From NCBI GenBank assembly GCA_963745035.1, contig CAVUVW010000011.1, forward strand, positions 1-64,000: a DNA stretch of 64,000 bases. The letters run 5' to 3'. Below, one piece after another: positions 8,126 through 48,220 of this stretch. Every line of letters begins with the position of its first letter. Position 1 is the stretch's first letter. A program made the position numbers and the translations under genes. The notes beneath the pieces are model-generated. The model did not search any database, had not been told where the DNA came from, and saw only the letters and a list, made by a program, of their open reading frames with translations. This stretch comes from an uncultured delta proteobacterium (GTDB lineage Bacteria; Desulfobacterota; Binatia; UBA9968).

Positions 8126-9431
8126 GTTCAAGCCGGGGATCATTTACGTTTTGAACCGGGCGCATGGTTTACAGTTTTTTAGAGTTAGTTCCGTGCCAGG
8201 TTTTGCGCTGGCATAATCTTTTTTGCATGTTGATCGAGAATACCCAGCAGATGAAAACTATAACGGACTTCCCACTGCTCGGGTCCGACCTGCTTCAGTC
8301 CAACCGGCTCGTGTGCCAGGACTTCAGAGACATAAAGGAGATCGCCGTGCCACTTGATCTCGCCGTTGTGTCGCACTCGTCTAACGGTCATGCCCGGACT
8401 GTATTGTACGGGCGGGAGTTTGTCGGGATAGCGCCGTGGGGAGCTAAGATAAACACTGCCCGGGGTCTTTCGTCCCAAGGCCTCATGGGAACGCTGGCCG
8501 TTATACTGCTTTACGAAAAAGTCAAATGCGCGCTGTTGTCGACTGTAGGTTGGCTGAGGCGCAACATCGTGCTTAAGCGTTCGATGCATCCGTTCATGGC
8601 GCCCGTTCTGGCTTGGCTTACCCGGCTTGATCCGTTCAGGACGGATGCCAAGCTGGATCCACCACTTCGACAACTCGCTGACACCGCCCACACAGAGCGA
8701 GGCAAACGGTGCTCCGTTGTCGGTACGAATGGCCCGGAGCAGTCCGTATTGTCGAAAGGCTCTTTCAAACCACGGCCGAACCACCCGATAGCTGTGCTGC
8801 CCCAAGGCTTGGCACATCAACAGATAACGAGAGAAATTGTCGGTCAACGTAAGCGGGTAACAGCGCTGACCATTCCCCAAGAGAAAGTCTCCCTTGGAGT
8901 CCGCACTCCAGATCTGATTCGGTCCATGGCAGTCGCTAAACGGTTCACTGTACGGTACCACGTGGCGCCGACGTACACGGCGGTTGACCAGCCCGGCACG
9001 CTTGAGGATCGCACCGGCTGCAGAGTCCGCAGGCCAGGTCAACTTAGGTTTTTTCTCACCCAAATAATCCAAAACCTTTTTCGGACCCCAGCTCGGATGG
9101 CTAAGCTTGATGGCAATAATCATCTCGCGGATTTCCTCAGGGGTCTCATTGCGATGACGGTGCGCCGCGCGCGAGCGCTCCTCGAGCGCCTCAACTCCAC
9201 CGTCTTGGTAGCGCTTAATCCATTTGTCAGCCGTGGGACGGCTAATTCCATAGGCTCTGCACAATTCAATCTTACTGTATTCCTTACTCAGCCAGTCAGC
9301 GATAAATTTAACTCGTTGATCCATGGCACTGGTCTGTTCCCAAGGCATTGGCAAGCTCCTCCTTGCCTCTGCCTCTTAAACTGTAAACCATGTGCCCGGT
9401 TTGTTTTGTAAATGATGCTACCGGTTTGTAC
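8126..9431 (-). mobile_element. IS481-family insertion sequence, copy 1 (~1306 bp)
   Basis: ~50-bp imperfect terminal inverted repeats GTTCAAGCCGG..ATGGTTTACAG / CTGTAAACCAT..CCGGTTTGTAC; flanks CCACCT / CCTCCT. Confidence 0.9.
8185..9354 (-). CDS. IS481-family DDE transposase
   Basis: MPW start, HTH, WSAD, LTLTDNFSR, IRTDNGAPF, NGRHERMHRTLK. Confidence 0.92.
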   Translation of the reverse strand: MPMPWEQTSAMDQRVKFIADWLSKEYSKIELCRAYGISRPTADKWIKRYQDGGVEALEERSRAAHRHRNETPEEIREMIIAIKLSHPSWGPKKVLDYLGEKKPKLTWPADSAAGAILKRAGLVNRRVRRRHVVPYSEPFSDCHGPNQIWSADSKGDFLLGNGQRCYPLTLTDNFSRYLLMCQALGQHSYRVVRPWFERAFRQYGLLRAIRTDNGAPFASLCVGGVSELSKWWIQLGIRPERIKPGKPSQNGRHERMHRTLKHDVAPQPTYSRQQRAFDFFVKQYNGQRSHEALGRKTPGSVYLSSPRRYPDKLPPVQYSPGMTVRRVRHNGEIKWHGDLLYVSEVLAHEPVGLKQVGPEQWEVRYSFHLLGILDQHAKKIMPAQNLARN

Positions 9432-9519
9432 CCTCCTTCATCCTCCCCCGCCACGCGGGGGAGGATGAAGGAGGGGTTTTGAACAGCTTGAACTTTTTGA
9501 ACGACTTGAACCATGCGAT

Positions 9520-10557
9520 TTACCGTGCCGGCAGCGGCTCCGCGCCGGCAATTTTCTTGTATAGCTCGATGATCTCGGGCTCGCGGGGGATTTCTTTGAT
9601 TACGTTTTCATGGTCTTCGGGGAGGAGAGGCGACGCGTCATCGCCGGTGAGCTTTTTATAGTCGCGCAAAAATTCCGGGTCTTTGTAGGTTTTCCGAAAT
9701 GCCTCTTGGACCATAGCGACCCGATCCTTGGGAGTTCCCGGCGGTAGGACCGAGGGTCCACCGGCCACTCTGAAAGCGCGCGACAAAATGATCACCTTAC
9801 GCTCTCTATCCGATCTGGCAAAGCTTTCCAGCTCAGGAAGCTGCTTGAACTGGGGATGTTTGTCGCCCTTGGGGATTTCCAAGATCGCGTGAAAGTCCAC
9901 CAATCCGCCGGCGAGCCAGTCCGGGTTCCGTTGCGCGACCGAATCGGCCGCCGTCGCCCGAGCATCGACCTCCCCGCGCATGAGCGCCTGGTCGATTTCC
10001 GGCCCAGCGTAGCCGGCGATAAATTTGGGGTCCTTGAGACCAAGAATGTAGGCGAAGAGGCGACCTTCATTGTAGGTAGAGAAACCCACGGATTGGCCGC
10101 CGATCCTGACTCCGGAAGCGGCGGTGAGTTTCTCAATGCTGCTCAAGCCTGCCTGTCTCCTGCTTAAAAAGAGCGGGTGATACGAGCTGTAAGGTGACCC
10201 CAGATAAAAAAACTTATCGAGATCGTAAAGAACTCCCGATTCTCCGAGCACCGCGGCAGCAACCATGCCGAGCCCGGGGTTACCGATCATCAAGCCGTCA
10301 GGCCGAGCAGACCGGTAGACATGATTGGCGGCCTTTCGACCGCCGCCGCCGGGCATATACTCGTTGACAATATTCGGGTTTCCCGGAATGTATTTCTGCA
10401 GGAAAGGTATCATCGCTCTAACCCGCATATCGCCCGTGCCGCCCGGATCACGGCCGTGAATGATGGTAATTGTCTTGCCTTGATAATACGGAGTCTGGGC
10501 GAACGCGGAAGTCAGTAAGAATAAAGTGTAAGTGATGAGAGCAAATAGTTTCAGCAT
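9520..10557 (-). CDS. TctC/Bug family substrate-binding protein (copy 6)
   Basis: Same motifs as paralogues. Confidence 0.9.
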   Translation of the reverse strand: MLKLFALITYTLFLLTSAFAQTPYYQGKTITIIHGRDPGGTGDMRVRAMIPFLQKYIPGNPNIVNEYMPGGGGRKAANHVYRSARPDGLMIGNPGLGMVAAAVLGESGVLYDLDKFFYLGSPYSSYHPLFLSRRQAGLSSIEKLTAASGVRIGGQSVGFSTYNEGRLFAYILGLKDPKFIAGYAGPEIDQALMRGEVDARATAADSVAQRNPDWLAGGLVDFHAILEIPKGDKHPQFKQLPELESFARSDRERKVIILSRAFRVAGGPSVLPPGTPKDRVAMVQEAFRKTYKDPEFLRDYKKLTGDDASPLLPEDHENVIKEIPREPEIIELYKKIAGAEPLPAR

Positions 10558-10573
10558 ACCCTCCTCTTTACAG

Positions 10574-10695
10574 GTTCAAAAAGTTCAAGTCGTTCAACCG
10601 CTACGCTTCGTTCAATCCCTACCTTTGTCCCCCGCGATGCGGGGGAAGATATAGGAGGGGGCTTGATCGGTTTGAACTTTTTGAACGATTTGAAC
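10574..10695. repeat. GTTCAA/TTGAAC REP-like element, empty variant
   Basis: Arms plus TCCCCCGCGATGCGGGGGA hairpin; left arm reads CCTACCT instead of CCTCCT. Confidence 0.8.
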
Positions 10696-10704
10696 CATTC
10701 CAAT

Positions 10705-11778
10705 TCACCGCGGCGGCAGCGGGCCGGCGCCGGAGAATTTTTTCACCAACTCCAAGACCTCGGGCTCACGCGGCATTTCCTTAACCAGCCGAGTCAACTC
10801 TGCCGCTCCCAGGGGCGAAGGATCGTCGTCGACAAGTTTTCTGAAGTACTTTGGGAACTCTGGATCTCTATAGGTCTTGCGCATCGCTTCTTCGAGAATC
10901 TCAACTTTGTCCTTGGGCGTTCCGGGAGGCAAGATGTAAGGCGATCCCACGCCGCGGAAAGCACGCCAGACAGTAAGAACCTTTTTTTCCCTTTCGGTCT
11001 TGGCGAAAGCTTCTATCTCAGGAAGATGAGTAAGGCGAGGATGCTTGACCCCTTTCGGGATCTCCATAATGGCATGGAAGTTCATTATTTTCTTGTCCAA
11101 CCATTCCGGATTACGGCGCAAAACCGATATGGCTGCATTGGCTCTGGCATCGAGCTCTCCGTTGGTCAGCGCGACGTCCACCTCGGTGGATGTGTAACCG
11201 ACAATAAACTTCGGATCCTTCATCTCCAGGAAATACGCAAAGAAACGCCCCGCAACGTAGGATGTATGACCGACGGTCTGTCCGCCGATCCTAATCCCAG
11301 GTTTGGCCTTTAGCTTCTCCAAGTTGTCCAGGCCTAGTTCCGCTCTCGTGTAAACGACGGCGTGGTTTTCACTCTCTGGAGTACCGAGATAGATGAATTT
11401 GTCGACATCATAGGAGACGCCTTGCTCACGCATGATGCCCAAGCCCACGATTGCCCCGCTGCCGCCGCCTATGGTGAGCCCATCAGGGCGCGCCGATTGA
11501 TAGAGGTGATTTGCCCCTTTCCGACCGCCGCCGCCGTCCATGTACTCAATCACGATGGTGGGGTTTCCGGGAATGTGTTTTTTCAAAAAAGGAACCACCG
11601 CTTTTACTCGAAGGTCTCCGCTTCCGCCCGGCGCCGTGAACGCGACGACGGTGATGGTTTTGCCTTCGTAAAAATTAGTTTGGCAGCGCGCGTGAGTCGA
11701 TAGAAATCCTAGAGAAAGAACTGAGCCGGTCAGGAGCATCGATAGTGACGAGAATCTGCATTTGCAATTCTTCATCAT
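10705..11778 (-). CDS. TctC/Bug family substrate-binding protein (copy 7)
   Basis: Same motifs; close to copy 8. Confidence 0.9.
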   Translation of the reverse strand: MMKNCKCRFSSLSMLLTGSVLSLGFLSTHARCQTNFYEGKTITVVAFTAPGGSGDLRVKAVVPFLKKHIPGNPTIVIEYMDGGGGRKGANHLYQSARPDGLTIGGGSGAIVGLGIMREQGVSYDVDKFIYLGTPESENHAVVYTRAELGLDNLEKLKAKPGIRIGGQTVGHTSYVAGRFFAYFLEMKDPKFIVGYTSTEVDVALTNGELDARANAAISVLRRNPEWLDKKIMNFHAIMEIPKGVKHPRLTHLPEIEAFAKTEREKKVLTVWRAFRGVGSPYILPPGTPKDKVEILEEAMRKTYRDPEFPKYFRKLVDDDPSPLGAAELTRLVKEMPREPEVLELVKKFSGAGPLPPR

Positions 11779-11797
11779 CCCTCCTTAGGCCCGGCGC

Positions 11798-12865
11798 TCA
11801 CCTCGGCGGCAACGAGCCGGCGCCGGAAAGAACTTTTATCAATTCGATAATTTCCGGATCGCGCGGTGTTTCTCTAATCAGCTTGGTTAATTCCTCGGGC
11901 ATCATCGGCTCCATTTCCTCGCCGACCAACTTCAAAAACTCACGGTTCAACTCGGCGTCTGTGAGAGCCTTGCGCATGGCGTCCTGGAGAGTCGCGGCGC
12001 GCTCCTTCGGCGTTCCCGGCGGCAGCACGTACGGCGAACCGACGGATCTGAAGACGCGCCAGACCTCGAGAAGCTTCTTCTCGCGGTCGTTTCTCACAAA
12101 GCTCTCGATCTCGGGAAGGTGACTGAGGCGAGGATGCTTGGCGCCTTTGGGGACTTCCATGATGGCATGAAAGTCCATCACGCCCTTGTCCAGCCAATCG
12201 GAGTTGCGCCGCAAGACCGACACGGCCGCATTCGCCCTAGCGTCGAGCTCGCCGCGCAACAACGCGGCGTCCACTTCCGGCGCGGTGTAGCCGGCGATGA
12301 ATTTGGGATCCTTGAAGTCGAGGAAATAGGCGAAGAATCGTCCCGCTATGTACGAAACGTGTCCCACAGTCTGGGCGCCGATGCGCAGGCCCGGCTTGGC
12401 GCGGAGCTTTTCAAGGCTGTTCAGGCCCAGATCTTTGCGCGTGTAGATCGTTTGATGGCCGGGGGTTTCCGGCGCGCCCAGATAGATGAATTTATCGAGA
12501 TCGTAGAGGACGCCGCTTTCGCGCATGATGTTGAGCGAAATGACGCCGCTGCTCATGGCGCCGATTGTAAGTCCGTCGGGCTTGGCGTTGCGAAACATGT
12601 AGTTGGCGGCTTTGCGACCGCCACCGCCGTCCATGTACTCGAGCACCAAGGTGGGATTTCCCGGGATATGCCTTTTTAGAAAAGGCATCAGCGCTTTTAT
12701 GCGGAGATCGCCGGTTCCCGCGGGCGAGGTGCTGACGATGACAGTGATGGTCTTGCCTTGATAGAAAGGCGCCTGGGCGTAGGCGTAACCCGACGGGAGA
12801 CTGGCAACGATGATGCATGCGGCAAATAGAATCCAACTCCAGCTCTTACGCTTGTGAGTTGTCAT
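11798..12865 (-). CDS. TctC/Bug family substrate-binding protein (copy 8)
   Basis: Same motifs. Confidence 0.9.
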   Translation of the reverse strand: MTTHKRKSWSWILFAACIIVASLPSGYAYAQAPFYQGKTITVIVSTSPAGTGDLRIKALMPFLKRHIPGNPTLVLEYMDGGGGRKAANYMFRNAKPDGLTIGAMSSGVISLNIMRESGVLYDLDKFIYLGAPETPGHQTIYTRKDLGLNSLEKLRAKPGLRIGAQTVGHVSYIAGRFFAYFLDFKDPKFIAGYTAPEVDAALLRGELDARANAAVSVLRRNSDWLDKGVMDFHAIMEVPKGAKHPRLSHLPEIESFVRNDREKKLLEVWRVFRSVGSPYVLPPGTPKERAATLQDAMRKALTDAELNREFLKLVGEEMEPMMPEELTKLIRETPRDPEIIELIKVLSGAGSLPPR

Positions 12866-12886
12866 CGTCGTGCTCCGTCAAAAGTC

Positions 12887-13012
12887 AGGAGTTGAAAAAC
12901 TCGCTCGGAGTCCTTCGACAGGCTCAGGACGAGCGGACATAAGTTGAAACAACTGAAAAAAATCCGCGCATGCCGAGCTAGTCGAAGCATGGAAGTCGTT
13001 TTTCAATAGCCT
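12887..13012. repeat. MITE-like element with TTGAAAAAC / GTTTTTCAA ends enclosing a CCTTCGACAGGCTCAGG repeat
   Basis: Inverted ends AGGAGTTGAAAAAC / GTTTTTCAATAGCCT; inner TTCGAC..GTCGAA pair. Confidence 0.55.
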
Positions 13013-13077
13013 TTAGCAGTTAGAAATGATGCAAATCGGTCTTACTGCTTACTCCTTACTATTTACTCTTTGCTTCG

Positions 13078-14152
13078 TTATCCCCGCGGCGGCAATTTCT
13101 TGGGCCCCGCAAGGATTTTGAATAACTCGATCGCGTCGGGATCGCGCGGCACTTCTTTGATGGCCTTTTCATGGTTTTCCGGCAGCAGCGGCGTTGGATC
13201 GTCGGCGGTGAGTTTTCTATACTCTTTGGCGAAATCCGGATCCAGATAGGTTTTGCGGAAAGCCTCCTTCAACGTGTCGACCCGGTCCTTCGGTGTTCCC
13301 GGCGGCAGCACGAAGGGCGTGCCCGTGACGCGGAAACCCCGCTGCAAGGCAAGCATCTTACGCTCGCGGTCGTTCTTGGCGAAGGTTTCGATCTCGGGAA
13401 GCTTGGCAAAGACAGGATGGGGATGCTTGTCGCCTTTCGGAGTTTCCATAATCGCATGAATGTTGACCAGACCTTTTTCGAGCCATTCCTTATTGCGCGA
13501 CAGGATAGTATCAGGCCCGGTGGCGCGGCCGTCGATCTCGCCGCGCATCATTGCCGGGTCGAGTTCTGCGCCGCCGAAGGCGGCGATGAAAAGCGCGTCC
13601 TTCAAGCCCAGCATGTAGGTGAAAAGACGCCCTTCATTGTACGTGGAGAAGCCGACCGACTGCCCGCCGATCTTGACGCCGCTGGCGGCGCGCAGCTTGT
13701 CGAGGGTGTCGAAGCCGGCGTCTTTGCGGGTGACAAACACCGAATGGTAAGTGCTGTAGGGCGAGCCGAGGTAATGAAACTTATCGATATCATACAGCAC
13801 GCCGGATTCACCGAGGATGGCGAGCGACACCATGCCCGAGCTCAAGTTGCCGATGGTCAGGCCGTCGGGACGGGACGAGCGAAAAACGTGGTTGGCGGCC
13901 TTGCGGCTGCCGCCGCCCGGCATGAATTCCATCAACGATCGTCGGGTTCCCCGGAATGTATTTTTGCAAGAATGGCACGAGAGCGCGCACGCGGAGATCG
14001 CCGGTGCCGCCGGGATCGCGGCCCTGAATGATGGTGATGGTCTTCCCTTGAAAGAATGAAGTTTGGGCTGCCGCGGGCGCGGAAAACAATATTCCGGCCA
14101 GAGCAGTGAACAAGAAGCCTCCAAAAAAGAGGGCATGATTTTTGGCCTTCAT
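13078..14152 (-). CDS. TctC/Bug family substrate-binding protein (copy 9), 1-nt frameshift near 13935
   Basis: MKAKNH..GNPTIV in one frame, MEFMPGGGSRKAAN.. in the next. Confidence 0.85.
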
Positions 14153-14281
14153 AAACTCTCCCTTGGCGAAAGGTTTTGGCGAGGAGGTCAACTGATGCGC
14201 AGTGATATGTTGTTGTAAGGCGCACGAGAACGCACGACCTCGCTGTCTTTTCGTCTCGTAATTCCAGTCGGCGCGTTTGCA

Positions 14282-15316
14282 CTACTTGGGTCCCAACACT
14301 TTCTTCAAGCGGTCGATGACTTCCGGCGGTTGGCTCGTCAGCTCCTTGGCCAGAGTCTGGAGCTCTTCGCCGGCTACCGGGTCAAACTCGTAGTTGCGCT
14401 TTTTCACTTCCGCGCGGAACTGCTCATCGGCCATGGTTTTCGCATACGCGTCCCGCAAAGTTTTCAGCAGATCGGCCGGCAGGCCGGGAGGGCCGAACAT
14501 GGGCCGGCCCATGTCGTCGGCGCCGAGCAGCACGGTAGCCAAGCCGCGGCCCGATTGATTTGTTTTGTACTTATCCATGATTTCGAAGACAGTCGGAGTC
14601 TGCGGCAATCGAGCGTCGCGGGTTTTGCCGGTCTGAAAGAGATGATGCACGAAACCGTTCTTGCGCCAGGTGTGATAGGGTTCGCGGCCGAAAAACGCCT
14701 CGATCGTGAAGGCGCGGCAATGGATCTCGCCGCGCTCGACGCCAAGGTCGATATCGGTTCCGCCGGGATAGCCGGTGACGATGTTGAACTTGGCGCCGAC
14801 AGTTTCTTGCATGAGTTTTGGCAAATAGGAATCCGGCCCGGTAACGCCGGTTGCGCCGCATTTCGGCGGCTCCTTGGCGGTGCGCACGTCCTCGATCGTT
14901 TTGTATGGACTGTCTGCGCGCATGTACATCTGGCTGGAGCCGCGAGCCGGCGAGCCGATCCAGCTGAACTTGGCCCATTCAAACTGGATCTCCGAGCGGC
15001 CGATAATTTGATTAAGATAGAGCGACGGGATAACCGAACCGATGATCGTCAGTCCGTCCGGCTTCACATTGGAATAGAGGTGATTGACCGCGACGACGTG
15101 GCCGGCGCCGGGCATGTTCTGCACGATGAAACTAGGATTGCCCGGAAGATGTTTTCCCATATGCTCGACGATCAGACGTGCCCAGAGATCGTAGAGGTTA
15201 CCGGGCGGCGTACCGACAATGACGCGGACGGTTTTTCCCTGATAGAAGGGCGCTTGAGCGTGCGCGTTGGCAGTCCAAAGGAGTGCCGAAAGGATCAACA
15301 GCAACGCTTTCCTCAT
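14282..15316 (-). CDS. TctC/Bug family substrate-binding protein (copy 10, QNMPGAG subtype)
   Basis: QNMPGAG, KCGATG, GYPGG, HCRAF. Confidence 0.9.
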   Translation of the reverse strand: MRKALLLILSALLWTANAHAQAPFYQGKTVRVIVGTPPGNLYDLWARLIVEHMGKHLPGNPSFIVQNMPGAGHVVAVNHLYSNVKPDGLTIIGSVIPSLYLNQIIGRSEIQFEWAKFSWIGSPARGSSQMYMRADSPYKTIEDVRTAKEPPKCGATGVTGPDSYLPKLMQETVGAKFNIVTGYPGGTDIDLGVERGEIHCRAFTIEAFFGREPYHTWRKNGFVHHLFQTGKTRDARLPQTPTVFEIMDKYKTNQSGRGLATVLLGADDMGRPMFGPPGLPADLLKTLRDAYAKTMADEQFRAEVKKRNYEFDPVAGEELQTLAKELTSQPPEVIDRLKKVLGPK

Positions 15317-15480
15317 GTTGAGCCTCCGCAACTGAAATTTCGGATCAAATCGCCCCCACTCGCGCTCTTAGTCGAGTCGCGCCAACGATTACCTAAAAGC
15401 AGAGGTTCGGTCAAGGGACCGGGAAGCCGTGAGGCGCGAGGCCTGAGGCGAAAGTTTTCGGAATAAATGACGCTGTCGCT

Positions 15481-16881
15481 TTATTCGTCTTTGGCGGCCA
15501 ACGCAGACTTTAGGATTTTTCCCGTGGGACCTTTGGGAAGTTCCGTCAGGATGTGAATTCTCCGCGGATACTTGTAGCGCGCGAGATGTTCTTTGCAGTA
15601 GTCGTGCAGTTCCTCGGAGGAAAGACGCTGCGCGCGTTTCAGACTGACGAAGGCCGCAACTTCTTCGCCCAGATCGGCATCGGCTACGCCGACGACTGCC
15701 GCCTCGGCGACAGCCGGATGGGAGACCAGAACCGCTTCAATCTCTTGCGGGAAGACGGAATAGCCGCCGCGCAGAATGCGCTCGCGCTTTCTGCCGACGA
15801 TTTGAACGTAGCCGTCCGAAGAGACGGTCGCGAGATCGCCGGTTTTGAACCAACCATTGGAGATAACCTCGTTGGTTTCCTCCGGAGCATCCAAGTAGCC
15901 GTCCATCATCGCCGGCGACTTGATCCAGAGCTCGCCGATATTATCGCGAGTGGCCCCGTCGTCGAACTCCAGCTTGATCTCGACATCCGGCACCGCTTTG
16001 CCGACGGCGTTAGGCACCTCATGGGTTTCGCCGGCACGAAAGGACAACGGCCGGAAGAGCTCCGTCATGCCGTAGCCGCGCACAATGCGTGTTCCTGATT
16101 TTTCGCGCCACTCGACCGCTAACTCCCATGGGCATGGCGCGGCTCCGGCCACCGCCCATCGCAGGCTTGAGAAATCGCATCCGGCAAAAGACGGCGAGTT
16201 GAGCAGGCGACGAAAGATCGTCGCTACGCCCGGCAGCACAGTTACCCGATGCGCACTGATTGCGGCGAACACCGCTTCCGGGGTGAACCGCTCGAGGATC
16301 ACGATTGTTGCGCCGGTGAGAAGCGGTGCCAGGAGGCCGCCGTTGAGCCCCAGAGAGTGCGCCAACGGCACGGCGACCAACACCGTGTCATCGGCGGTAA
16401 GCCCCATAACCGGCTCGGCCCAGGAGTGATTGGCAAACGTCAACGCGTCATGGCTGAAGACGGCGCCCTTCGGCCGTCCGGTGCTGCCGGAGGTGTAGAG
16501 AATCAACGATGGAGCATCGACTTCTTCGGCCGTCCGCCAAGGTCCGCCGCTCGTCGCAACTCGATCGATGCTTAATTTCGGCCGGAGATCCGCTTTGAAC
16601 GCGGCGAGCTCTTCCTCTTTGACTTGTGGGTTGAGCGGCGCAGGCGTTGCGCCGAGCTTGAGAATAGCCAGAAACGCGATGACGAAGTCGATTCCATTGG
16701 GGAGCAGGATCGCGACGCGATCGCCGGCAACGACGCCTCGAGTCGAAAGATCGCTCGCGAAGCCCGATGCGAAAGCGTCGAGCTCGGACCACGTCACTGT
16801 GCGATTGTCCGCGATGAGAGCTGGTTTGGCGCCGAAGCGGCGCGCGTTGGCTTCGACGGCGCAGACGAAGTTGGGTTGCAT
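15481..16881 (-). CDS. acyl/aryl-CoA synthetase (AMP-forming, class I adenylating enzyme)
   Basis: YTSGSTGRPKG, GYGMTE, WFKTGD, LPKGPTGKILK; track N-terminal extension is repeat-derived. Confidence 0.9.
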   Translation of the reverse strand: MQPNFVCAVEANARRFGAKPALIADNRTVTWSELDAFASGFASDLSTRGVVAGDRVAILLPNGIDFVIAFLAILKLGATPAPLNPQVKEEELAAFKADLRPKLSIDRVATSGGPWRTAEEVDAPSLILYTSGSTGRPKGAVFSHDALTFANHSWAEPVMGLTADDTVLVAVPLAHSLGLNGGLLAPLLTGATIVILERFTPEAVFAAISAHRVTVLPGVATIFRRLLNSPSFAGCDFSSLRWAVAGAAPCPWELAVEWREKSGTRIVRGYGMTELFRPLSFRAGETHEVPNAVGKAVPDVEIKLEFDDGATRDNIGELWIKSPAMMDGYLDAPEETNEVISNGWFKTGDLATVSSDGYVQIVGRKRERILRGGYSVFPQEIEAVLVSHPAVAEAAVVGVADADLGEEVAAFVSLKRAQRLSSEELHDYCKEHLARYKYPRRIHILTELPKGPTGKILKSALAAKDE

Positions 16882-16890
16882 GGCTATACT

Positions 16891-16978: not shown

Positions 16979-16981
16979 CGC

Positions 16982-31419: not shown

Positions 31420-31468
31420 ACTAAGCGTTCAAGACGTTCAAATCGTTCAAACCGTTCAAGCCCCCTCC

Positions 31469-32534
31469 GTTCAAGCCGGGGATCATTTACGTTTTGAACC
31501 GGGCGCATGGTTTACAGTTTTTTAGAGTTAGTTCCGTGCCAGGTTTTGCGCTGGCATAATCTTTTTTGCATGTTGATCGAGAATACCCAGCAGATGAAAA
31601 CTATAACGGACTTCCCACTGCTCGGGTCCGACCTGCTTCAGTCCAACCGGCTCGTGTGCCAGGACTTCAGAGACATAAAGGAGATCGCCGTGCCACTTGA
31701 TCTCGCCGTTGTGTCGCACTCGTCTAACGGTCATGCCCGGGCTGTATTGTACGGGCGGGAGTTTGTCGGGATAGCGCCGTGGGGAGCTAAGATAAACACT
31801 GCCCGGGGTCTTTCGCCCCAAGGCCTCATGGGAACGCTGGCCGTTATACTGCTTTACGAAAAGATCATATTCTCGCTGTTGTCGTCTGTAGGTTGGCTGG
31901 GGCGCAACATCGTATTTAAGGGTTCGATGCATTCGTTCATGGCGCCCGTTCTGGCTTGGCTTACCCGGCTTGATCCGTTCAGGACGGATGCCAAGCTGGA
32001 TCCACCACTTCGACAACTCGCTGACACCGCCCACACAGAGCGAGGCAAACGGTGCTCCGTTGTCGGTACGAATGGCCCGGGGCAGTCCGTATTGTCGAAA
32101 GGCTCTTTCAAACCACGGCCGAACCACCCGATAGCTGTGCTGCCCCAAGGCTTGGCACATCAACAGATAACGAGAGAAATTGTCGGTCAACGTAAGCGGG
32201 TAACAGCGCTGACCATTCCCCAAGAGAAAGTCTCCCTTGAAGTCCGCACTCCAGATCTGATTCGGTCCATGGCAGTCGCTAAACGGTTCACTGTACGGTG
32301 CCACGTGGCGCCGACGCACACGGCGGTTGACCAGCCCTGCACGCTTGAGGATCGCACCGGCTGTAGAGTCCGCAGGCCAGGTCAACTTAGGTTTTTTCTC
32401 ACCCAAATAATCCAAAACCTTTTTCGGACCCCAGCTCGGATGGCTAAGCTTGATGGCAATAATCATCTCGCGGATTTCCTCAGGGGTCTCATTGCGATGA
32501 CGGTGCGCCGCGCGCGAGCGCTCCTCGAGCGCCT
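31469..32534 (-). mobile_element. IS481-family element, copy 2, 5'-truncated
   Basis: Near-identical to copy 1 up to GAGCGCCT, then joins the REP hairpin; lacks one terminal repeat and the first ~55 codons. Confidence 0.9.
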
Positions 32535-32640
32535 TCCACCTCTTTCCTCCCCCGCGTCGCGGGGGAGGACCAGAGGTGGGGGATTGAACGGAGCGCAGCG
32601 GTTGAACGGCTTGAACGTTTTGAACTTCACGAGGAAATCT

Positions 32641-34833: not shown

Positions 34834-34839
34834 GATGTC

Positions 34840-37845: not shown

Positions 37846-37960
37846 CGTTCAAGCCGTTCAAAAAGTTCAAATCGTTCACATCGTTTTCGGACGTAAGGCT
37901 CTTGGTTTTTGTATTTTTTCTGACGGTTTGAACGGCGTAAACGGCTTGAACGATTTGAAC
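37846..37960. repeat. GTTCAA/TTGAAC inverted arms with AT-rich filler and no GC hairpin
   Basis: Four 9-nt units on each side. Confidence 0.8.
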
Positions 37961-37963
37961 TCT

Positions 37964-40181: not shown

Positions 40182-40248
40182 GATGCCTCCCTTGGTTGGG
40201 GTTCTTGAGCGCGACGATAGATACCACCAACGATCTAAGGCGTCAAAG

Positions 40249-41353
40249 TTAAACTGTGCTCCATACCTTGCGCGCTGTCTCGATGACCAAGCCAAGTTTT
40301 TGCCACTGTTGGTCTTCCGTGAGCAGGTTGCCTTCCATGGTCGAAGCAAAGCCGCATTGGGGGCTGAGAGCGAGATTCTCGAGCGGCACGTACTTGCTCG
40401 CTTCGTCGATTCTTCTTGCGAGATGATCCGGCGATTCCATATCAGCCAGCTTGCTGCTCACGAGGCCCAGGACCACCGTCTTACCGCGCGGCACGAAGCG
40501 CAGAGGTTCGAAGGTGCCGGCGCGCTCGGACTCGTACTCGAGGAGAAAAGCATCGACGTTGAGGCGGCCGAATAATTTTTCCGCGATCGCGTCGTAGCCG
40601 CCTTCGGCGTACCACTGGCTGCGGTTGTTCCCGCGGCAAAGGTGAATAGCGAGAATCACGCCTGCCCGTTTCGCGCCTTCCAGACAAGCGTTGTCAACGT
40701 TAATCGCTTCGTCGAGCGCCTGGTCGGGATCGAGGCCCATTTCAGTTTTTCACGTAGCTGCGCCATTTCGGATCGATGTAATAGCTGTAGCGCGGCGCGT
40801 CGATTTGCACGTACTGTGCTCCTTCATCGACCAACGCCTGAATCTCCGCCTTGAAGATTGGCACGATATCCCACAAGAAATCGGAGTAGTTCGGATAGAC
40901 TTTGTCGCTGATGCCTTTCTTATAATAGATCGCTGGAAACTGATTGGCGGTGGGCAAGGTGACCTTGACGTCTCCGGGGCTGTGCTGCTTGATGAAAGCG
41001 AATTCATGGCCGGTGAGACGCCGCTTCTGTTTGATTTTGGCCACGATCGTGCCTGGCACCATTGAAGGGCGGGACGATGGGCCGGTGCCGGTTTGCCAAG
41101 TGCGCGCCACGGCCACGCCTTCGTCGATGCCTTCCACGGCGTCGTTGAAATCGCTCATGAAGTTGTTGCGGCGCAGCTCCCCGTCGGTAAAGATCTTGAA
41201 GCCGAGATCCTTCTGCCGCTCGATGACCCGCAGGATGTGTTTGTCTTCGAGCGCTCGTAGTTGCGCGGTGTCGGAAACTGTGTTGCGTGCTTGCAGCAGC
41301 TCAGCGGGTCGAAGCAGGCTGCCGATGTGGTCGGCGCGATATCTTGCTGGCAT
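40249..41353 (-). CDS. cobalamin-independent methionine synthase II family protein, frameshift in A-run near 40745
   Basis: RADHIGSLLRP, TDGELRR, VQIDAP, HLCRGN, LSPQCGFAS. Confidence 0.88.
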
Positions 41354-41369
41354 AGAACCTCCCAAGATT

Positions 41370-41580
41370 CGAGTGTTGGAGTGAGTATGGGAATTGAGGA
41401 TTTTCCGAGTTTCCTTTGGGGACGACTCACCGCAGAGGCACGGAGTTCGCAGAGTCGAAGTAATTTTTAATTAAGAACTCTTTACTCCGCGACCTCAGCG
41501 CCTCGGCGGTGCAATCTCCGCATCGTTCCGGAATTGAAGACCCATCACTCCAGTACTCCAATAATCCATTACTCCAATCT
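41370..41580. repeat. nested repeat: TGGAGT/ACTCCA arms enclosing a CACCGC MITE
   Basis: Same layout as 20094-20335. Confidence 0.75.
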
Positions 41581-42667
41581 TCATTCTCCCAACAGTTTCT
41601 TCAATCTGGCCACCACCTCGGGCGGCTGCGCAATTACTTCTTTAGCCAATGCGGAGAGCTGTTCACCACTGATGGGATCGACGGGCCAGCCGCGCTTCTT
41701 TGCATCGGCCAGGAGATCGGGATCTTTGAGCGTCTTATCCCAAGCGTCGCGAAGGATCTTGATTCGATCGGCGGGCATGTTCGGCGGCGCGGTCCACGGC
41801 CGCCCAAACTCATTGGACGCGGTGATCAACGTGACCAAGCGGCGATCGGCGTCGCTCGCCTTGTAGCGATCCAATAGCTCATGAAAAGTAGGCGTATCCG
41901 GCAACAAGTGATCCCGCTTGCGGCCGGTTTGCACGAGTGGGCGGGTGAATCCCTTTTTATACCAGGAGATGTGCGGCTCGCGGCCAAAAAACGCCGCGAT
42001 GGTGATCAGCCGGCACTGCAACTCGCCGCGTTCGAGCGCGACGTCGATGTCGCCGGCGCCTTGATAGCCGGCGATGATGGTGGATTTGGCGCCGAGCACG
42101 TCATCCAAGAGCTTGGGAATGTGATAGGTGATCGAAGCGGTACCCGTGGAGCCGCATTTTGGCGACTCGCCGCCCTTGCGCATATCGTCGATGGATTTAT
42201 ACGGACTGTCGCCGCGCATAATGAACAGCAGCTCGGTCGGTTCCGGCGTACCGATCCAATTGAACTTCGCCCAATCGAACTGGACTTCTTTGCGGCCGAT
42301 CAGTTGATCCATGTAGATGGCCGAATTGAGTGAGCCCAGAGTGAGGCCGTCCGGCTTGGCGACATTGTACACATAGTTGGCCGCAATCACCGAACCCGCC
42401 CCCGGCATGTTTTGCACCGTGACGCTCGGATTGCCGGGGATGTGTTTTCCCAAATAGGTTGCGATGTGCCGCGTCCAGAGATCGTAAAGATCGCCGGCTT
42501 GGCCGCCGCGGATGATTCTTACCGATTTCCCTTGGAAGAAATTGTCCTGGGCATGGGCGGGACTGCTCCACGCAGCATAGAGCAAAGCGCAGGGCGAGAA
42601 GCCTCATCCATTTTGGATTTTCGATTTTGGCTTTTAGATTGTCGGACCGAGAATTCGAAGATCGCAT
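41581..42667 (-). CDS. TctC/Bug family substrate-binding protein, frameshift in leader near 42590; start uncertain
   Basis: QNMPGAGS, KCGSTG, GYQG, RGELQC. Confidence 0.85.
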
Positions 42668-42731
42668 CCAGGTTCTCTCAAGCATGTTGTTTTACTGCTC
42701 ATCTGAAATCGGCAATCCAAAATCGAAAATG

Positions 42732-43718
42732 TCATTTGATGACTTTATCCGCTCTTTCCAGTCATCTTCTGCGGAATCGTCAGACCGATCTGCTTGGCGG
42801 TTTTGAGATTGACGAGAAACTCAAATTTCGTCGGCTGCTCCACAGGCATGTCGGCGGGCTTGGTGCCTTTCAAGATCTTGTCGACAAAGTCAGCGGCGCG
42901 CCGCCATAAGTCCGTATAGTCTCGGCGCGTAGCTCATCAAGCCGCCGGCCTCAACAAACTCACTCGTTGGGTACATCGCCGGCAACCGGTTCTTTGCCGC
43001 GAAGTCCAACACTTGGCGTTGCTGAGTAATGATAAGTCCACCTGATGCTCGTAATGAGCGCCTGGGCGCGTTCCCTTTTCGCTCGCGCAAATGCGCTCTC
43101 AAAATCGTCAAGGCTTCGCACCGGAAGCGATAGAAGTTTGACTCCCAACGCCTTGGCCGTAGCTTCCATCTCTGTGAGAGCCAGGTTTCCCCTCATGCCA
43201 CCCGATTGCCAGAGGAAGGCCACCCGGGCAACCTTGGGGAAGGCTTCCTTGAGCAGTTCCAACCGTTTGCCATCTAGATCCGGCGCCATGACGCTAAGTC
43301 CGGTGATATTCCCGCCTGGTCGTGCCAGGCTGGAGACAAGCCCAGTTCCTACTGGATCGGAATGGAGCGCGAATACGATGGGAATTGTCGGGCTCGCCTT
43401 CTGAGCAGCTAAAATAGCCTGGGGGACGGTGACGATCACGTCAACTTTGAGACCGACCAGTTCGGCTGCAAGGTCAGGCAGCCGTTCGAGTTTTCCTTCT
43501 GCATATCGGTACTCAATGACAATGTTTTTTCCTTCGACATAGCCAAGCTCGCGCAGCCGTTGGCGAAATGCTTCGACCCGGGCCGATTGAACGGACGCGG
43601 AGGACGCGAACAGAATTCCTATCCGGGGAATTCTCGCCGGCTGCTGCGCCTCGGCTGTCAACGCAACACAGAGCAGCATCGCTGCAACCAGGATGGGCAG
43701 CGCCACAGCGTTTTTCAT
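42732..43718 (-). CDS. ABC transporter substrate-binding protein (ABC_sub_bind type) with three indels; possible pseudogene
   Basis: LRELGYVEGKN, DPVGTGLVSSLARPGGNITG, GGLMSY, PTKFEF, RADKVIK. Confidence 0.8.
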
Positions 43719-43826
43719 CGCGCACCTCGTTTCGAGGGTTATCTATCACGGCGATCGAGCGAAAGAAAAGTGTGGTTTATAGCGGAAGGCGACGGATTTG
43801 GATTGCGGACAGCCGACTATTCTCAG

Positions 43827-44288
43827 CTAGGAGTTTGTTTGATTTCGGTCCTTGCGCTTCAACGCTTCGACGTCGGCTAAGTCTTGCGTCCTCGCCGATG
43901 CGAGTTTGTTCTTGATCAAGTGTTCTTTGGAGAGCACGGCCACCGGTTGATCGGCGAATTTCGAAATCATCCGCTCTGCCCAAGCTTCGTCGAACTGGAC
44001 GCCGTCGATCACGGTCAAGACATCGATGCGTATGGGTTCCACTCCGATCTGGAAGATGAGGCCGGGTGTCGAAAGGTCTTTCTCCGTAAGATCATGCAAC
44101 GGCGCGCCGAAGGCGCGTAGGGCTTCGATGACTCGTGTCGCGTTCTCAGGGGAAGGACGCACCCAAACGTCGAGGTCTTGGGTTGCGCGGACATGGCCGT
44201 GGGCGGCCAAGGCGTGCGCGCCGACCAAGAGAAATTCAACTTGTCGGCCGTTGAATTCTGCTAATAGATCTCTGAAGTCTTGGTTCAT
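43827..44288 (-). CDS. stand-alone nucleotidyltransferase-fold protein
   Basis: LVGAHALAAHG..RATQDLD..RIDVL..LIKNK..RTQDLADVE. Confidence 0.8.
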   Translation of the reverse strand: MNQDFRDLLAEFNGRQVEFLLVGAHALAAHGHVRATQDLDVWVRPSPENATRVIEALRAFGAPLHDLTEKDLSTPGLIFQIGVEPIRIDVLTVIDGVQFDEAWAERMISKFADQPVAVLSKEHLIKNKLASARTQDLADVEALKRKDRNQTNS

Positions 44289-44451
44289 GGGCTTGGTTCG
44301 GTTGCCAAGCGAGGCAGAGCAGGGTCAATTCCCAAACCGCGTTCATCCGCTCTTCGGGTGTAGCGTTGTCCCAATATTGCTGGTCGGGAACGGGGTCTCC
44401 GGGTCGGATAACGGAGCTAGTGATCTTCTTGCGTCCGGCTCGATGCTTCAT
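44236..44451 (-). CDS. small protein overlapping the nucleotidyltransferase (putative partner)
   Basis: YW..TPEER..AVWEL..PRLQR; 53-nt overlap. Confidence 0.6.
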   Translation of the reverse strand: MKHRAGRKKITSSVIRPGDPVPDQQYWDNATPEERMNAVWELTLLCLAWQPNQAHEPRLQRSISRIQRPTS

Positions 44452-44546
44452 ACAGTGACTTTATAGCACATTCCGGAGAACACCTCCGCTGATCGTTTTT
44501 ACTCCCGCTTCCTTCCGGGAACCAATCACGGAACACTGGCAATAAG

Positions 44547-45531
44547 TCATCGAATCACTTTATCCGCTCTTTCCATCACCTTCTGCGGAATCGTCAGACC
44601 GATCTGCTTAGCGGTTTTGAGATTGACGAGAAACTCAAATTTCGTCGGCTGCTCGACTGGAATGTCGGCTGGCTTGGTCCCTTTCAGGATCTTGTCGACA
44701 AAGTCAGCGGCGCGCCGGAATAAGTCCGTATTGTCTGGCCCGTAGCTCATCAAACCGCCGGCCTCAACAAACTCACTGTTTGGGTACATCGCCGGCAAGC
44801 GGTTCTTTACCGCGAAGTCCAACACTTGGCGTAGCTGAGTCACGATAAGTGCACCGGTGCTCGTAATGAGCGCCTGGGCGCCGTTCCCTTTTCGCTCGCG
44901 CGAATGCGCTCTCAAGATCGCCAAGGCTTCGCACCGGAAGCGATAGAAGTTTGATTCCCAACACCTTGGCCGCAGCCTCCATGTCTGTGAGTTCCAGGTT
45001 TCCCCTCATACCACCCGCTTGCCAGAGGAAGGCCACCCGGACAATTTTAGGGAAAGCTTCCTTGAGCAGTTCCAACCGTTTGCCATCTAGATCTGGCGCC
45101 ATCTGGCTAAGTCCGGTGATAGTCCCCCCTGGTTGCGCCAGGCTGGAAACGAGCCCACTTCCTACTGGATCGCTACTAGCGGCGAATACGATGGGAATCG
45201 TCGGGCTCGCCTTTTTAGCAGCTAAAACAGGCACGGCGCCGGTGGTGACGATGACGTCCACTTTGAGACGGACCAGTTCGGCTGCAAGGTCAGGCAGCCG
45301 TTCGCGTTTCCCTTCTGCATATCGGTACTCAATGACAATGTTTTTTCCTTCGACATAGCCATGCTCGCGCAGCCGTTGGCGAAATGCTTCGACCCGGGCC
45401 GAGTTGAGGGACGCGGAGCCCGAGATCAGAATTCCTATCCGGGGAATTCTCGCCGGCTGCTGAGCCTGAGCGAAAGGAGCAGTTATCAGCAAGACAGTTG
45501 TCAGTAACCAGAAAAGAGGTTTTGAACTCAT
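44547..45531 (-). CDS. ABC transporter substrate-binding protein (ABC_sub_bind type), frameshift near 44883
   Basis: Close paralogue of 42732-43718. Confidence 0.82.
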
Positions 45532-45585
45532 AGTATTCGCTTCTGTTTTATACTGACGACTGATTACTAATCACTGGCAAATTGT

Positions 45586-45620
45586 CACCGTATCACCTTA
45601 TCCGCCCGCATCAGCGCGTC
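45586..45620 (-). pseudogene. isolated 3' tip of a third ABC-SBP gene (DALMRADKVIR*)
   Basis: Minus strand GACGCGCTGATGCGGGCGGATAAGGTGATACGGTGA. Confidence 0.6.
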
Positions 45621-45657
45621 GCAAAGTTCAGAACAGAAAAGCATTGTGGCGCGCGCG

Positions 45658-45768
45658 CGTCATTCCCGTGCACGCGGGAATCGGGTGACGGACTGTGTCC
45701 GTCATACCGTTGAAGAACGGTATCCAGGTGGATAATGGGTCTGGATTCCCGTTTTCACGGGAATGACG
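45658..45768. repeat. gene-less sibling of the GIY-YIG unit
   Basis: Right arm identical (27/27) and left arm 24/25 to those at 36706-37070; third hairpin at 45700-45727. Confidence 0.85.
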
Positions 45769-45811
45769 GATATGCAACGCCGCTTCTTGATCAAGCTTGT
45801 GAGGCGGTACA

Positions 45812-46735
45812 CTAGCGAAATGTCTCCTTGATGTAGCGATATGCTGCGATGGCAGCGGTGGCGCCGTCGCCGGCGGAAGTGATCGCCTGCGCGGCCGAGT
45901 CTTGGCGGATGTCGCCGACGGCGTACAAGCCGCCGCGCGCGGTTTTCATCCAGCCGTCGGTCGGCACATGTCCGGTGTCGCCGAGGCTTAAAATATTTTT
46001 AAACAACGCAGTATTCGGCTTCAAGCCGACATAAACGAATAAGCCCGCCAGCTCGATTTCAGATGTTTCACTAGTACCAAGGTTGCGCACCTGCACCCCG
46101 CTGAGTTTATCATCGCCCAAGACCTCTTCGACGGCGGTTCGATAGTGCGGCGCGATCTTCGGCTCGTTCAATACTCTGTCGAGATACGAACGATGGCCGG
46201 TAAAACTTGCTTCGCGCTGAAAAACTAAAACCGACTGCGCGAAATTGGCAAGTGTCAGCGCTTCCTGGAGCGCGGAGTCGCCGCCGCCGACCACGCCGAC
46301 GACCTGGCCGTCGTAGAGCGGGCCATCGCAGCTTGCGCAGTGGCTTACGCCTCGACCCATCAGTTTCTCTTCGCCTGGCACGCCGAGTTCTTTGAGCGCC
46401 GAACCCGTGGCGACGATGACGGCTTTGGCCACATGGGATTTTTCGTCGGTTGCAACCGACCAGAAACAATCTTTGGCTTCCAGCTTGAGGACCTCGGCGC
46501 GTTCAAACTCGGCTCCCTGGTCCGCCGCCTGGCGCTGAACTGTCGGACAAAGGTCATAACCGGCGATGCCATCCGGAAAACCGGGGAAATCCTCGATCTT
46601 CTCGATGCTGATGAGATGCCCGCCGGGAATATTCGATTCCAGGATCAGGGTGGAAAGGCCATGCCGGGCGGAGAACAACCCGGCAGTTAGTCCGGCGAGG
46701 CCGGAGCCGACGACGATTACATCATACTCGGACAT
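45812..46735 (-). CDS. trxB: thioredoxin-disulfide reductase-like flavoprotein
   Basis: GSGLAG, IVATG, GVSHCASCDG, GGGDSA, YAVGD. Confidence 0.85.
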   Translation of the reverse strand: MSEYDVIVVGSGLAGLTAGLFSARHGLSTLILESNIPGGHLISIEKIEDFPGFPDGIAGYDLCPTVQRQAADQGAEFERAEVLKLEAKDCFWSVATDEKSHVAKAVIVATGSALKELGVPGEEKLMGRGVSHCASCDGPLYDGQVVGVVGGGDSALQEALTLANFAQSVLVFQREASFTGHRSYLDRVLNEPKIAPHYRTAVEEVLGDDKLSGVQVRNLGTSETSEIELAGLFVYVGLKPNTALFKNILSLGDTGHVPTDGWMKTARGGLYAVGDIRQDSAAQAITSAGDGATAAIAAYRYIKETFR

Positions 46736-46792
46736 ATTTAAATTCTTTGGTTCAAGCCGTTCAAAAAGTTCAAATCGTTGAAGCCCCCTCCT

Positions 46793-48097
46793 GTTCAAGC
46801 CGGGGATCATTTACGTTTTGAACCGGGCGCATGGTTTACAGTTTTTTAGAGTTAGTTCCGTGCCAGGTTTTGCGCTGGCATAATCTTTTTTGCATGTTGA
46901 TCGAGAATACCCAGCAGATGAAAACTATAACGGACTTCCCACTGCTCGGGTCCGACCTGCTTCAGTCCAACCGGCTCGTGTGCCAGGACTTCAGAGACAT
47001 AAAGGAGATCGCCGTGCCACTTGATCTCGCCGTTGTGTCGCACTCGTCTAACGGTCATGCCCGGACTGTATTGTACGGGCGGGAGTTTGTCGGGATAGCG
47101 CCGTGGGGAGCTAAGATAAACACTGCCCGGGGTCTTTCGTCCCAAGGCCTCATGGGAACGCTGGCCGTTATACTGCTTTACGAAAAGATCAAATTCTCGC
47201 TGTTGTCGTCTGTAGGTTGGCTGGGGCGCAACATCGTATTTAAGGGTTCGATGCATCCGTTCATGGCGCCCGTTCTGGCTTGGCTTACCCGGCTTGATCC
47301 GTTCAGGACGGATGCCAAGCTGGATCCACCACTTCGACAACTCGCTGACACCGCCCACACAGAGCGAGGCAAACGGTGCTCCGTTGTCGGTACGAATGGC
47401 CCGGGCAGTCCGTATTGTCGAAAGGCTCTTTCAAACCACGGCCGAACCACCCGATAGCTGTGCTGCCCCAAGGCTTGGCACATCAACAGATAACGAGAGA
47501 AATTGTCGGTCAACGTAAGCGGGTAACAGCGCTGACCATTCCCCAAGAGAAAGTCTCCCTTGAAGTCCGCACTCCAGATCTGATTCGGTCCATGGCAGTC
47601 GCTAAACGGTTCACTGTACGGTGCCACGTGGCGCCGACGCACACGGCGGTTGACCAGCCCTGCACGCTTGAGGATCGCACCGGCTGTAGAGTCCGCAGGC
47701 CAGGTCAACTTAGGTTTTTTCTCACCCAAATAATCCAAAACCTTTTTCGGACCCCAGCTCGGATGGCTAAGCTTGATGGCAATAATCATCTCGCGGATTT
47801 CCTCAGGGGTCTCATTGCGATGACGGTGCGCCGCGCGCGAGCGCTCCTCGAGCGCCTCAACTCCACCGTCTTGGTAGCGCTTAATCCATTTGTCAGCCGT
47901 GGGACGGCTAATTCCATAGGCTCTGCACAATTCAATCTTACTGTATTCTTTACTCAGCCAGTCAGCGATAAATTTAACTCGTTGATCCATGGCACTGGTC
48001 TGTTCCCAAGGCATTGGCAAGCTCCTCCTTGCCTCTGCCTCTTAAACTGTAAACCATGTGCCCGGTTTGTTTTGTAAATGATGCTACCGGTTTGTAC
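46793..48097 (-). mobile_element. IS481-family element, copy 3 (~1305 bp); transposase 46852-48020 with 1-nt deletion near 47404
   Basis: Both terminal repeats present; perfect CCTCCT duplication at 46787-46792 and 48098-48103. Confidence 0.92.
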
Positions 48098-48220
48098 CCT
48101 CCTTCATCCTCCCCCGCGTCGCGGGGGAGGACAAGAGAGCCTGCCCCGGACGTGATCCGGGGTGGGGGTTTGAACGGAGCGTAGCGGTTGAACGGCTTGA
48201 ACGTTTTGAACGAGCTATAA

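Follow-up and report, generated by a model that had tools for sequence, protein, structure and literature searches.

The IS481-type element and its copies

The window analysed here is the whole stretch of 64,000 nucleotides that opens contig CAVUVW010000011.1 (assembly GCA_963745035.1) of an uncultured member of the Binatia. It contains three copies of a 1306-bp insertion sequence (IS) of IS481 type, each of which interrupts an intergenic palindromic repeat resembling the REP (repetitive extragenic palindromic) sequences of other bacteria. A blastn search of the whole assembly (7.43 Mb, 28 contigs) with copy 1 as a query raised the number of copies in the genome to four, the only one beyond the three in the window being located on contig C16 (C16:148739-150044, 99.9% identical to copy 1). 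The window copies have a common orientation, with the transposase gene on the minus strand, and all copies of the element are intergenic. In addition, the scar of a fifth insertion is found at C16:127152-127254. All five events, i.e. the four copies and the scar, occurred at one and the same junction of one palindromic repeat (Table 1).

The four copies represent two sequence variants, one comprising copy 1 and the C16 copy, and the other copies 2 and 3. The left and right terminal inverted repeats (IRL and IRR) of copy 1 align over 51 and 53 nt, respectively, with 40 matches. Copy 2 lacks the final ~240 bp, a segment that comprises the IRR as well as ~38 codons from the start of the transposase gene; a 6-nt common motif, TCCACC, lies at the break point. 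The longest open reading frame (ORF) left in copy 3 encodes 278 amino acids. Judging from the reading frames, the enzyme can still be encoded only by copy 1 and the C16 copy. Copy 3 occupies the intergenic region bounded by a pyridine-nucleotide-disulphide oxidoreductase gene and the gene that comes next. The listed start (46810) of the ORF at 45812-46810 falls within copy 3, its Pfam match begins at residue 29, and according to orthologues the real start is near 46724; automatic annotation could here wrongly stretch a gene into the element.

The transposase is the product of one ORF, with no programmed frameshift, and consists of an N-terminal helix-turn-helix region followed by an integrase-core domain. 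Profile searches with the copy 1 protein identified the Pfam domains rve, rve_3, HTH_32, HTH_28 and HTH_29. The best NCBIfam model was that of the IS481 transposase (NF033577), matched at positions 1-283 of 284 with 204.2 bits, a score below the curated cut-off of 224, and the runner-up was IS3 with 100.3 bits. When 69 distinct relatives are aligned, residues D152, D212 and E254 do not vary; presumably they constitute the catalytic acidic triad. The element further has terminal inverted repeats, a short target duplication (4-6 bp) and a length of 1306 bp within the ~1-1.5 kb common for the IS481 family.

Junctions of the element with the repeat

The target repeat is a palindrome composed of several parts. 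Outermost are GTTCAA units at 9-bp spacing; further inwards come a C-rich arm, then a 4-nt spacer and finally a hairpin, after which the same parts recur as a mirror image. The hairpin measures 23 nt and sits, between genes, in an imperfect palindrome of ~55 nt (this length was read by eye from the flanks). In all four copies the element is preceded by CCCCC(T/A)CC(T). At the other side the IRR, which is the end next to the 5' end of the transposase gene, is followed by a short spacer and then by a GC hairpin of the CCTCCCCC type. Copies 1 and 3 have 10 nt between IRR and hairpin, and the C16 copy has 12 nt; in the truncated copy 2 the hairpin stands 11 nt past the deletion break. Past the GC hairpin of copy 3 there is a second small hairpin, and only then come the TTGAAC units (48170-48211).

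In the scar on C16, ~33 nt from the start of the IRL remain, joined to the C-rich arm at the usual point. Its layout is C-rich arm, 20 nt of IRL, two extra bases, 11 IRL bases and the right-hand TTGAAC units. The rest of the element, together with the hairpin, has apparently been deleted between the 11-nt IRL motif and the same motif in the TTGAAC array.

A first-pass annotation, made from the letters of the window, had proposed that all three window copies start at the same point of the repeat, share one orientation and turn the 5' end of the transposase gene towards the hairpin. Orientation and junction are indeed common to all copies, but copy 2 has neither the IRR nor the T at its left junction, and the left side of copy 1 is devoid of GTTCAA units. 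The direct repeats reported there, a perfect CCTCCT pair at copy 3 and CCACCT/CCTCCT at copy 1, were read at the positions given in Table 1. The motif CCTCCT occurs 2494 times in the genome, and each copy of the element uses one that is placed 4 nt before such a hairpin.

The exact length of the duplication depends on where the element ends. Among the 118 related ends in the listed matches of the wide scan described below, the terminal GTAC is followed by C in 104 cases and by A in 14, never by G or T, and many relatives begin with TG. The duplication may therefore be 4, 5 or 6 bp long, and the flanking T and C might belong to the element. If the true ends hold one more base on each side, the duplication becomes CTCC, that is, 4 bp, as in the Pseudomonas fluorescens SBW25 element considered in the last section.

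Table 1. Element copies and repeat features (window positions, unless contig C16 is named)
Feature	Position	Strand	Remarks
Transposase gene of copy 1	8185..9354	-	single ORF; 389 aa from TTG, 387 aa from ATG
IS copy 1, intact	8126..9431	-	1306 bp; IRL 8126-8176, IRR 9379-9431
IS copy 2, truncated	31469..32534	-	1066 bp kept; blastn and junction reading
IS copy 3	46793..48097	-	1305 bp; frame shifted by 1-bp deletion at alignment column 611
Left direct repeat of copy 1	8120..8125	+	CCACCT
Right direct repeat of copy 1	9432..9437	+	CCTCCT
GC hairpin at copy 1	9442..9464		10 nt from IRR; followed by four TTGAAC units at 9479-9511
Left arm at copy 2	31427..31468		four GTTCAA units and C-rich arm, ends in CCCCCTCC
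GC hairpin beside truncated copy 2	32546..32568		TTGAAC units at 32584-32625
Left arm at copy 3	46750..46792		three GTTCAA units, C-rich arm, direct repeat CCTCCT 46787-46792
Right side of copy 3	48098..48130		direct repeat CCTCCT 48098-48103, GC hairpin 48108-48130
Hairpin at C16 copy	C16:150057-150077		degenerate, 12 nt from IRR
Empty repeat copy	3171..3288		single CCTCCT at 3189-3194; 3' hairpin arm degenerate
Second empty repeat copy	10574..10695		more diverged; GTTCAA units, hairpin, TTGAAC units

The repeat exists independently of the element

Besides the two empty copies of the repeat in the window, of which the first, with its single CCTCCT, had already been recognized in the first-pass annotation, further empty copies are located at C19:122552, C17:265418, C27:120632 and elsewhere in the genome. 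Moreover, the intergenic site orthologous to that of copy 3 hosts an intact repeat without the IS in two genomes of the same genus (G401 and G373), and repeats with other centres in two more (G407 and G337). Of 26 genomes of the genus, 24 contain the hairpin pattern (23 of 25 if the unpublished G403 is left out), and the reversed control pattern gave 0 matches. In contrast, the transposase (E-value ≤ 1e-60) was detected in the genome of the window (G000) and in one of the 21 other same-genus genomes. Since empty sites and orthologous empty sites exist, and since the hairpin is spread genus-wide and the transposase is not, the repeat is a pre-existing landing pad and no part of the element, which is the insert. 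The claim of site-specific insertion into a pre-existing repeat, originally based on the three window copies, is strengthened by the finding that the sole other copy retrieved from the genome by blastn, as well as the scar, also resides in the repeat.

The genome encodes 309 GTTCAA/TTGAAC arrays, including 49 forward-then-reverse pairs with many different centres, and 53 hairpins of the CCT(C/T)CCCC type. The hairpins were grouped by eye, with no sorting tool, into three sub-families (A, B and C). All five insertion events fall within sub-family A, which has 7 strict copies in the genome and, by a loose by-eye reading of the list of 53 hairpins, ~18. Sub-families B and C add ~27 hairpins of similar shape, according to the same by-eye sorting, and carry no element in this genome. 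To call the repeat abundant, as had been done, was thus an overstatement as far as the sub-family in use is concerned. The high copy number typical of REP sequences and bacterial interspersed mosaic elements (BIMEs), hundreds per genome, is not reached at any of these levels (7 strict, ~18 loose, 53 in the wider type). A link to a REP-associated tyrosine transposase (RAYT) was sought as well: the genome has five matches to PF01797 (Y1 transposase), and none of them has these hairpins or arrays within 900 nt. "REP-like" is a fair label for the repeat, but it is no classical high-copy REP.

Several other observations concern the repeats themselves. By the same sorting, the other two families of C-rich-first hairpins are the CCTTCCCCC type, flanked by CACCCC...TCCTAA, and the CCTCTCCC type, flanked by CCCTCACCC, and the hairpin at 55711-55731 of the window is outside sub-family A. 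C-first hairpins outnumber G-first ones 46 to 12. GTTCAA/TTGAAC arrays are also present at 37847-37960 of the window and, with a different centre, at the G407 site orthologous to that of copy 3; a run of six is located between tandem genes at C24:46658-52282. In some copies of the repeat a second small hairpin, of the CCCCGGA...TCCGGGG type, is nested between the GC hairpin and the outer arm (~48131-48165, C11:125215-125242 and the C14:111889 region); it looks like a small repeat inserted within another.

The GTTCAA arms had initially been considered a possible recognized feature of the target. Both the left side of copy 1 and the flanks of relatives elsewhere lack such arrays, and we discarded this candidate. 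The first 9 nt of the IRL match the array unit, which is probably a one-base coincidence, because close relatives of the element begin with GTGCAAGCC.

Related elements in other genomes and metagenomes

Judging from their flanks, relatives with 58-90% identical transposases are likewise positioned beside C-rich-first hairpins in other genomes and in metagenomes, and the stems of these hairpins differ. On metagenomic contigs encoding transposases that are 49-90% identical to that of the window element, 21 IRR flanks could be evaluated, and in 17 of them a hairpin begins 5-14 nt out; these 17 hairpins all have a pyrimidine-rich first arm, and their stems vary in sequence. The 90% identical relative in G316 lies 11 nt from a hairpin of another sub-family. 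In G029 (61% identical) each of the three copies has such a hairpin at a distance of 8-10 nt, and in one case the IRL rather than the IRR faces it. All three copies examined in G292 (47% identical), which has four in total, and all three contig ends in a metagenome-assembled genome (MAG) of Burkholderiales are also adjacent to such hairpins.

To cover a wider range of organisms, the IRR-end consensus was scanned against one genome per species (185,579 species). The scan retrieved at least 120 stretches from many phyla, and 118 flanks were usable. At many loci the automatic calls of inverted-repeat ends were imprecise, and the ends were re-set by the conserved GTAC terminus. Among the matches listed, a perfect stem of 6 bp or more begins at an offset of 7-13 nt, with a peak at 10 nt, in 31 of the 118 flanks; of 1382 control windows drawn at random from these loci, 31 had one. 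C-rich runs are more frequent than G-rich runs in these flanks (50 versus 16). The type of hairpin tracks the host: the CCTCYCCC type, the GGCACGGC type (Acidobacteriaceae, Terriglobus), the Pseudomonas REP and an enterobacterial type (Dryocola) could be distinguished.

We then mapped the presence of the hairpin on a quick tree of 81 rows. The trait is present in 7 of 11 rows of the clade that includes the window element and in 13 of 14 rows of a second Binatia clade. It changes 11 times on the tree compared to a mean of 21.3 for shuffled traits, and in none of the 500 shuffles was the number as low, although near-copies among the rows inflate this test. These results suggest that several branches of the family have inherited the habit, that they prefer a spacing of about 10 nt and that the hairpin sequence varies with the host.

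A more distant branch of the same transposase family shows a different arrangement. It was seen at L042-L044, three copies ~5 kb apart (G128:C6:109252-122826), and at L018 (G168). About 20 nt past the end of these elements there is a different repeat, a TTGCAGCGG...CCGCTGC hairpin followed by GCCGCTGAACC.

Proposed explanation, its limits and alternatives

In the four copies and the scar, position and orientation are the same. Our explanation, which we regard as very likely correct, is that this is a targeted element: by means of its single-ORF DDE (Asp-Asp-Glu) transposase it enters a REP-like palindrome that was already there, in the C-rich outer arm and 10 nt before the inner GC hairpin. 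The hairpin or the C-rich arm might serve as a docking site, either for the helix-turn-helix region at the N-terminus of the transposase or for the assembled transpososome. Docking would fix the site of strand transfer about one helical turn (10 nt) away, with a stagger of 4-6 bp (CTCC to CCTCCT duplicated) and with the IRR towards the dyad. Elements of the related IS3 family transpose via a copy-out-paste-in circle, and the same route is assumed here. The gain for the element could be a harmless intergenic site and perhaps also an upstream hairpin that blocks read-through into its gene.

A number of results weigh against this explanation or against its extension to the entire family. Only five events are available in this genome; they represent two sequence variants and three of them lie within 40 kb, so that the statistics are limited by local hopping and by the small number of founders. 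Direct repeats are absent from the C16 copy (CCTCCT versus CAAGCT), and the duplication at copy 1 is mismatched. A junction common to all copies would also be expected from gene conversion between copies of the repeat, and the part of the transposase in the choice of site by the Binatia element is one that we infer. As for the relatives, the random control windows used in the stem test include coding DNA. The folding energy of the 118 flanks, again among the matches listed, does not differ significantly from that of controls (mean -15.2 versus -14.1 kcal/mol, one-sided p = 0.09); only the test for a compact perfect stem at the given offset separates flanks from controls, whereas general folding energy does not. 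Among the fully assembled elements in the listed matches of the wide scan, a hairpin is present on the IRR side in 3 of 28 and on the IRL side in 2 of 28. Whole lineages, e.g. nine copies from Bryobacterales, have no hairpin, and in Pseudomonas the insertion occurs at the base of the stem, not 10 nt off. Finally, in a clade from Acidobacteriota a long C-tract is found 10-16 nt out in 9 of 10 IRR flanks, and an arm complementary to it is missing.

A universal "10-nt rule" for all elements sharing the IRR consensus was accordingly rejected, given the proportions of 31/118 and 3/28 among the matches listed, the lineages without a hairpin and the position at the stem base in Pseudomonas. Since the folding energies, the 28 assembled elements and the findings for Bryobacterales, Acidobacteriota and Pseudomonas all go against a general rule, the habit is lineage-specific. 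The comparisons indicate that some parts of the family inherit it, and what determines it may not be the same in every lineage.

A broader proposal is therefore advanced only tentatively, as a possibility that we consider somewhat less probable than its opposite. According to this proposal, a widespread IS481-type branch present in more than ten phyla might target a DNA shape, i.e. a GC hairpin or cruciform, or its C-rich arm, instead of a fixed sequence, and place its transposase-proximal end about one helical turn away. If true, the same lineage could adopt the REP family of whatever host it enters, be it the CCTCCCCC type, the GGCACGGC type, the Pseudomonas REP or the enterobacterial palindromic unit, and structure-guided target capture by a DDE transposase, reported so far for one Pseudomonas strain only, would be general in bacteria.

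The strongest competitor is a variant of the targeting explanation, in which targeting is real but is determined by a double-stranded pyrimidine- or C-rich tract ~10 nt from the cut, and the hairpin is incidental. The C-tracts of the Acidobacteriota clade, which have no second arm to pair with, speak for this variant; the excess of C-rich over G-rich runs in the flanks from the wide scan and the pyrimidine-rich first arm of all 17 hairpins of metagenomic relatives point in the same direction, as does the exclusive use of sub-family A despite the ~27 like-shaped hairpins assigned by eye to B and C. On the other hand, a palindrome of this kind reads C-rich first from both sides, so that this feature is partly automatic. 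Furthermore, some relatives are positioned 8-10 nt from hairpins without a C-tract, namely, the GGCACGGCT type in Acidobacteriaceae and Terriglobus (six loci), the Pseudomonas REP and the enterobacterial type, and the 90% identical relative in G316 lies 11 nt from a hairpin of another sub-family. On balance, we consider a C-tract as the sole determinant rather unlikely, though it deserves to be taken seriously.

It might also be argued that the copies spread by homologous recombination or gene conversion between repeats, with no repeated choice of target by the transposase. This would explain why all copies have the same junction and the same apparent duplication, why 20 nt to the right of copies 1 and 3 are identical and 8-9 nt to the left of copies 2-4 are common, and why the duplications of copies 1 and 2 have an A/T mismatch at the same position. 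However, the flanking homology is very short and is lost after 9-20 nt, and copy 1 has no left GTTCAA arm. Nor can recombination account for relatives in unrelated genomes that are placed alike beside different hairpins, or for the insertion observed in the laboratory in P. fluorescens SBW25 (PMC11708052). Such a scenario therefore seems quite improbable.

Least credible, to the point of being hardly worth retaining, is the view that the hairpin repeat belongs to a larger composite mobile unit, or that insertion is random and only harmless intergenic copies survive: the IRL does start with GTTCAAGCC, the same 9-mer as the unit of the flanking array, and every copy is intergenic, but empty repeats and orthologous empty sites are present, the hairpin is genus-wide and the transposase is not, relatives that are 76-90% identical begin with GTGCAAGCC and have flanks without such arrays, and selection could not produce a nucleotide-exact position in five of five events. 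The same kinds of evidence, i.e. the empty sites in this genome, the orthologous empty sites in G401 and G373 and the hairpins of genomes without a detected transposase, dispose of the concern, raised in the first-pass annotation, that the flanking repeat could be part of the element itself. The GTTCAA arms, named by the same annotation beside the hairpin as a possible recognized feature, are not needed, as copy 1 lacks them on the left and relatives in other genomes have none.

Other features of the window

On the minus strand of the window, the region 2091-15331 contains about ten paralogous ORFs of 344-364 amino acids, with 61-71% DNA identity and repeats between them. Four of these were scanned, and no Pfam family was detected in the four at E ≤ 1e-5. 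Two ORFs of 252 amino acids each (42960-43718 and 44773-45531), located 1.8 kb apart, share 90-93% DNA identity over 200-290 bp, which marks them, on sequence grounds, as a recent local gene duplication.

Comparison with known systems

Targeting of REP sequences had been thought, in the first-pass annotation, to be undescribed for IS481 elements. This is outdated. In P. fluorescens SBW25 (PMC11708052, mBio 2024), four IS481-family copies of ~1.3 kb with 49-bp inverted repeats are described, each having a REP at its 5' (upstream) end, with the same REP position and a 4-bp duplication; in the laboratory a REP cluster was also seen to receive a fifth insertion, a new one. In full-text literature searches, this report and its preprint were the only documents found to combine IS481 and REP targeting. 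Like the window element, the SBW25 element is ~1.3 kb long and has a single transposase gene, a repeat at its 5' end, a fixed REP position and a short duplication. The two differ in the family of the target repeat and in the phylum of the host, and a new insertion has been observed only in SBW25.

Our wide scan led to a 1279-bp Pseudomonas element (L157) that matches the IRR consensus of the window element and encodes a 43% identical transposase. All three of its IRR ends are located in the Pseudomonas REP, and all three IRL ends come after the same 7 bases. Considering its length and the association with REP, this is presumably the SBW25 element. It is inserted at the base of the REP stem, whereas the window element is inserted 10 nt before the stem.

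The IS3-family elements IS1397 and ISKpn1 insert into the palindromic units of enterobacterial BIMEs (Tobes & Pareja 2006, PMC1525189). They share with the window element a DDE transposase of the retroviral-integrase type, an N-terminal helix-turn-helix and insertion at REP hairpins, and, according to the same paper, experiments suggest that it is the transposase that picks the target. IS3 elements produce their transposase from two frames via frameshifting, whereas the window element uses one ORF. For IS1397 and ISKpn1 the insertion point is the loop of the palindromic unit or its edge, in contrast to the insertion of the window element 10 nt outside the inner stem.

In the IS110 family, all or nearly all copies of IS621, ISPpu9, ISPpu10 and ISPa11 are found at one REP position, e.g. 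7 of 7 or 6 of 6 (PMC1525189, Table 2; PMC11208160). The resemblance to the window element ends there, because IS110 elements have an unrelated DEDD enzyme and mechanism, no terminal inverted repeats and a target chosen by a bridge RNA; for the window element no sign of such an RNA was seen, and no search aimed at one was made. The type element of the family, IS481 of Bordetella pertussis, resembles the window element in the single ORF and in the short duplication, and its transposase family is the one whose profile the window transposase matches best, at a score below the curated cut-off. Its target is a short palindromic hexamer and not a hairpin repeat.

The window element has two traits of the functional class of REP-targeting elements: it is confined to one repeat family, one position and one orientation, and the repeat exists without it. 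IS elements confined to small intergenic repeats do little harm to the host, and the repeats become hot spots of rearrangement. If the habit is indeed inherited as proposed above, these elements would provide a natural system for studying how a DDE transposase gauges the distance from a DNA hairpin, and REP-like repeats could be used to predict the sites of such elements in fragmented metagenome assemblies, the contigs of which they often break. Tobes & Pareja (PMC1525189) list REP targeting for the IS3, IS110, IS4, IS256 and IS5 families, and IS481 is absent from that text. To a habit that, in the literature searched, was reported once before for IS481 (PMC11708052), the uncultured Binatia now add a well-documented case.

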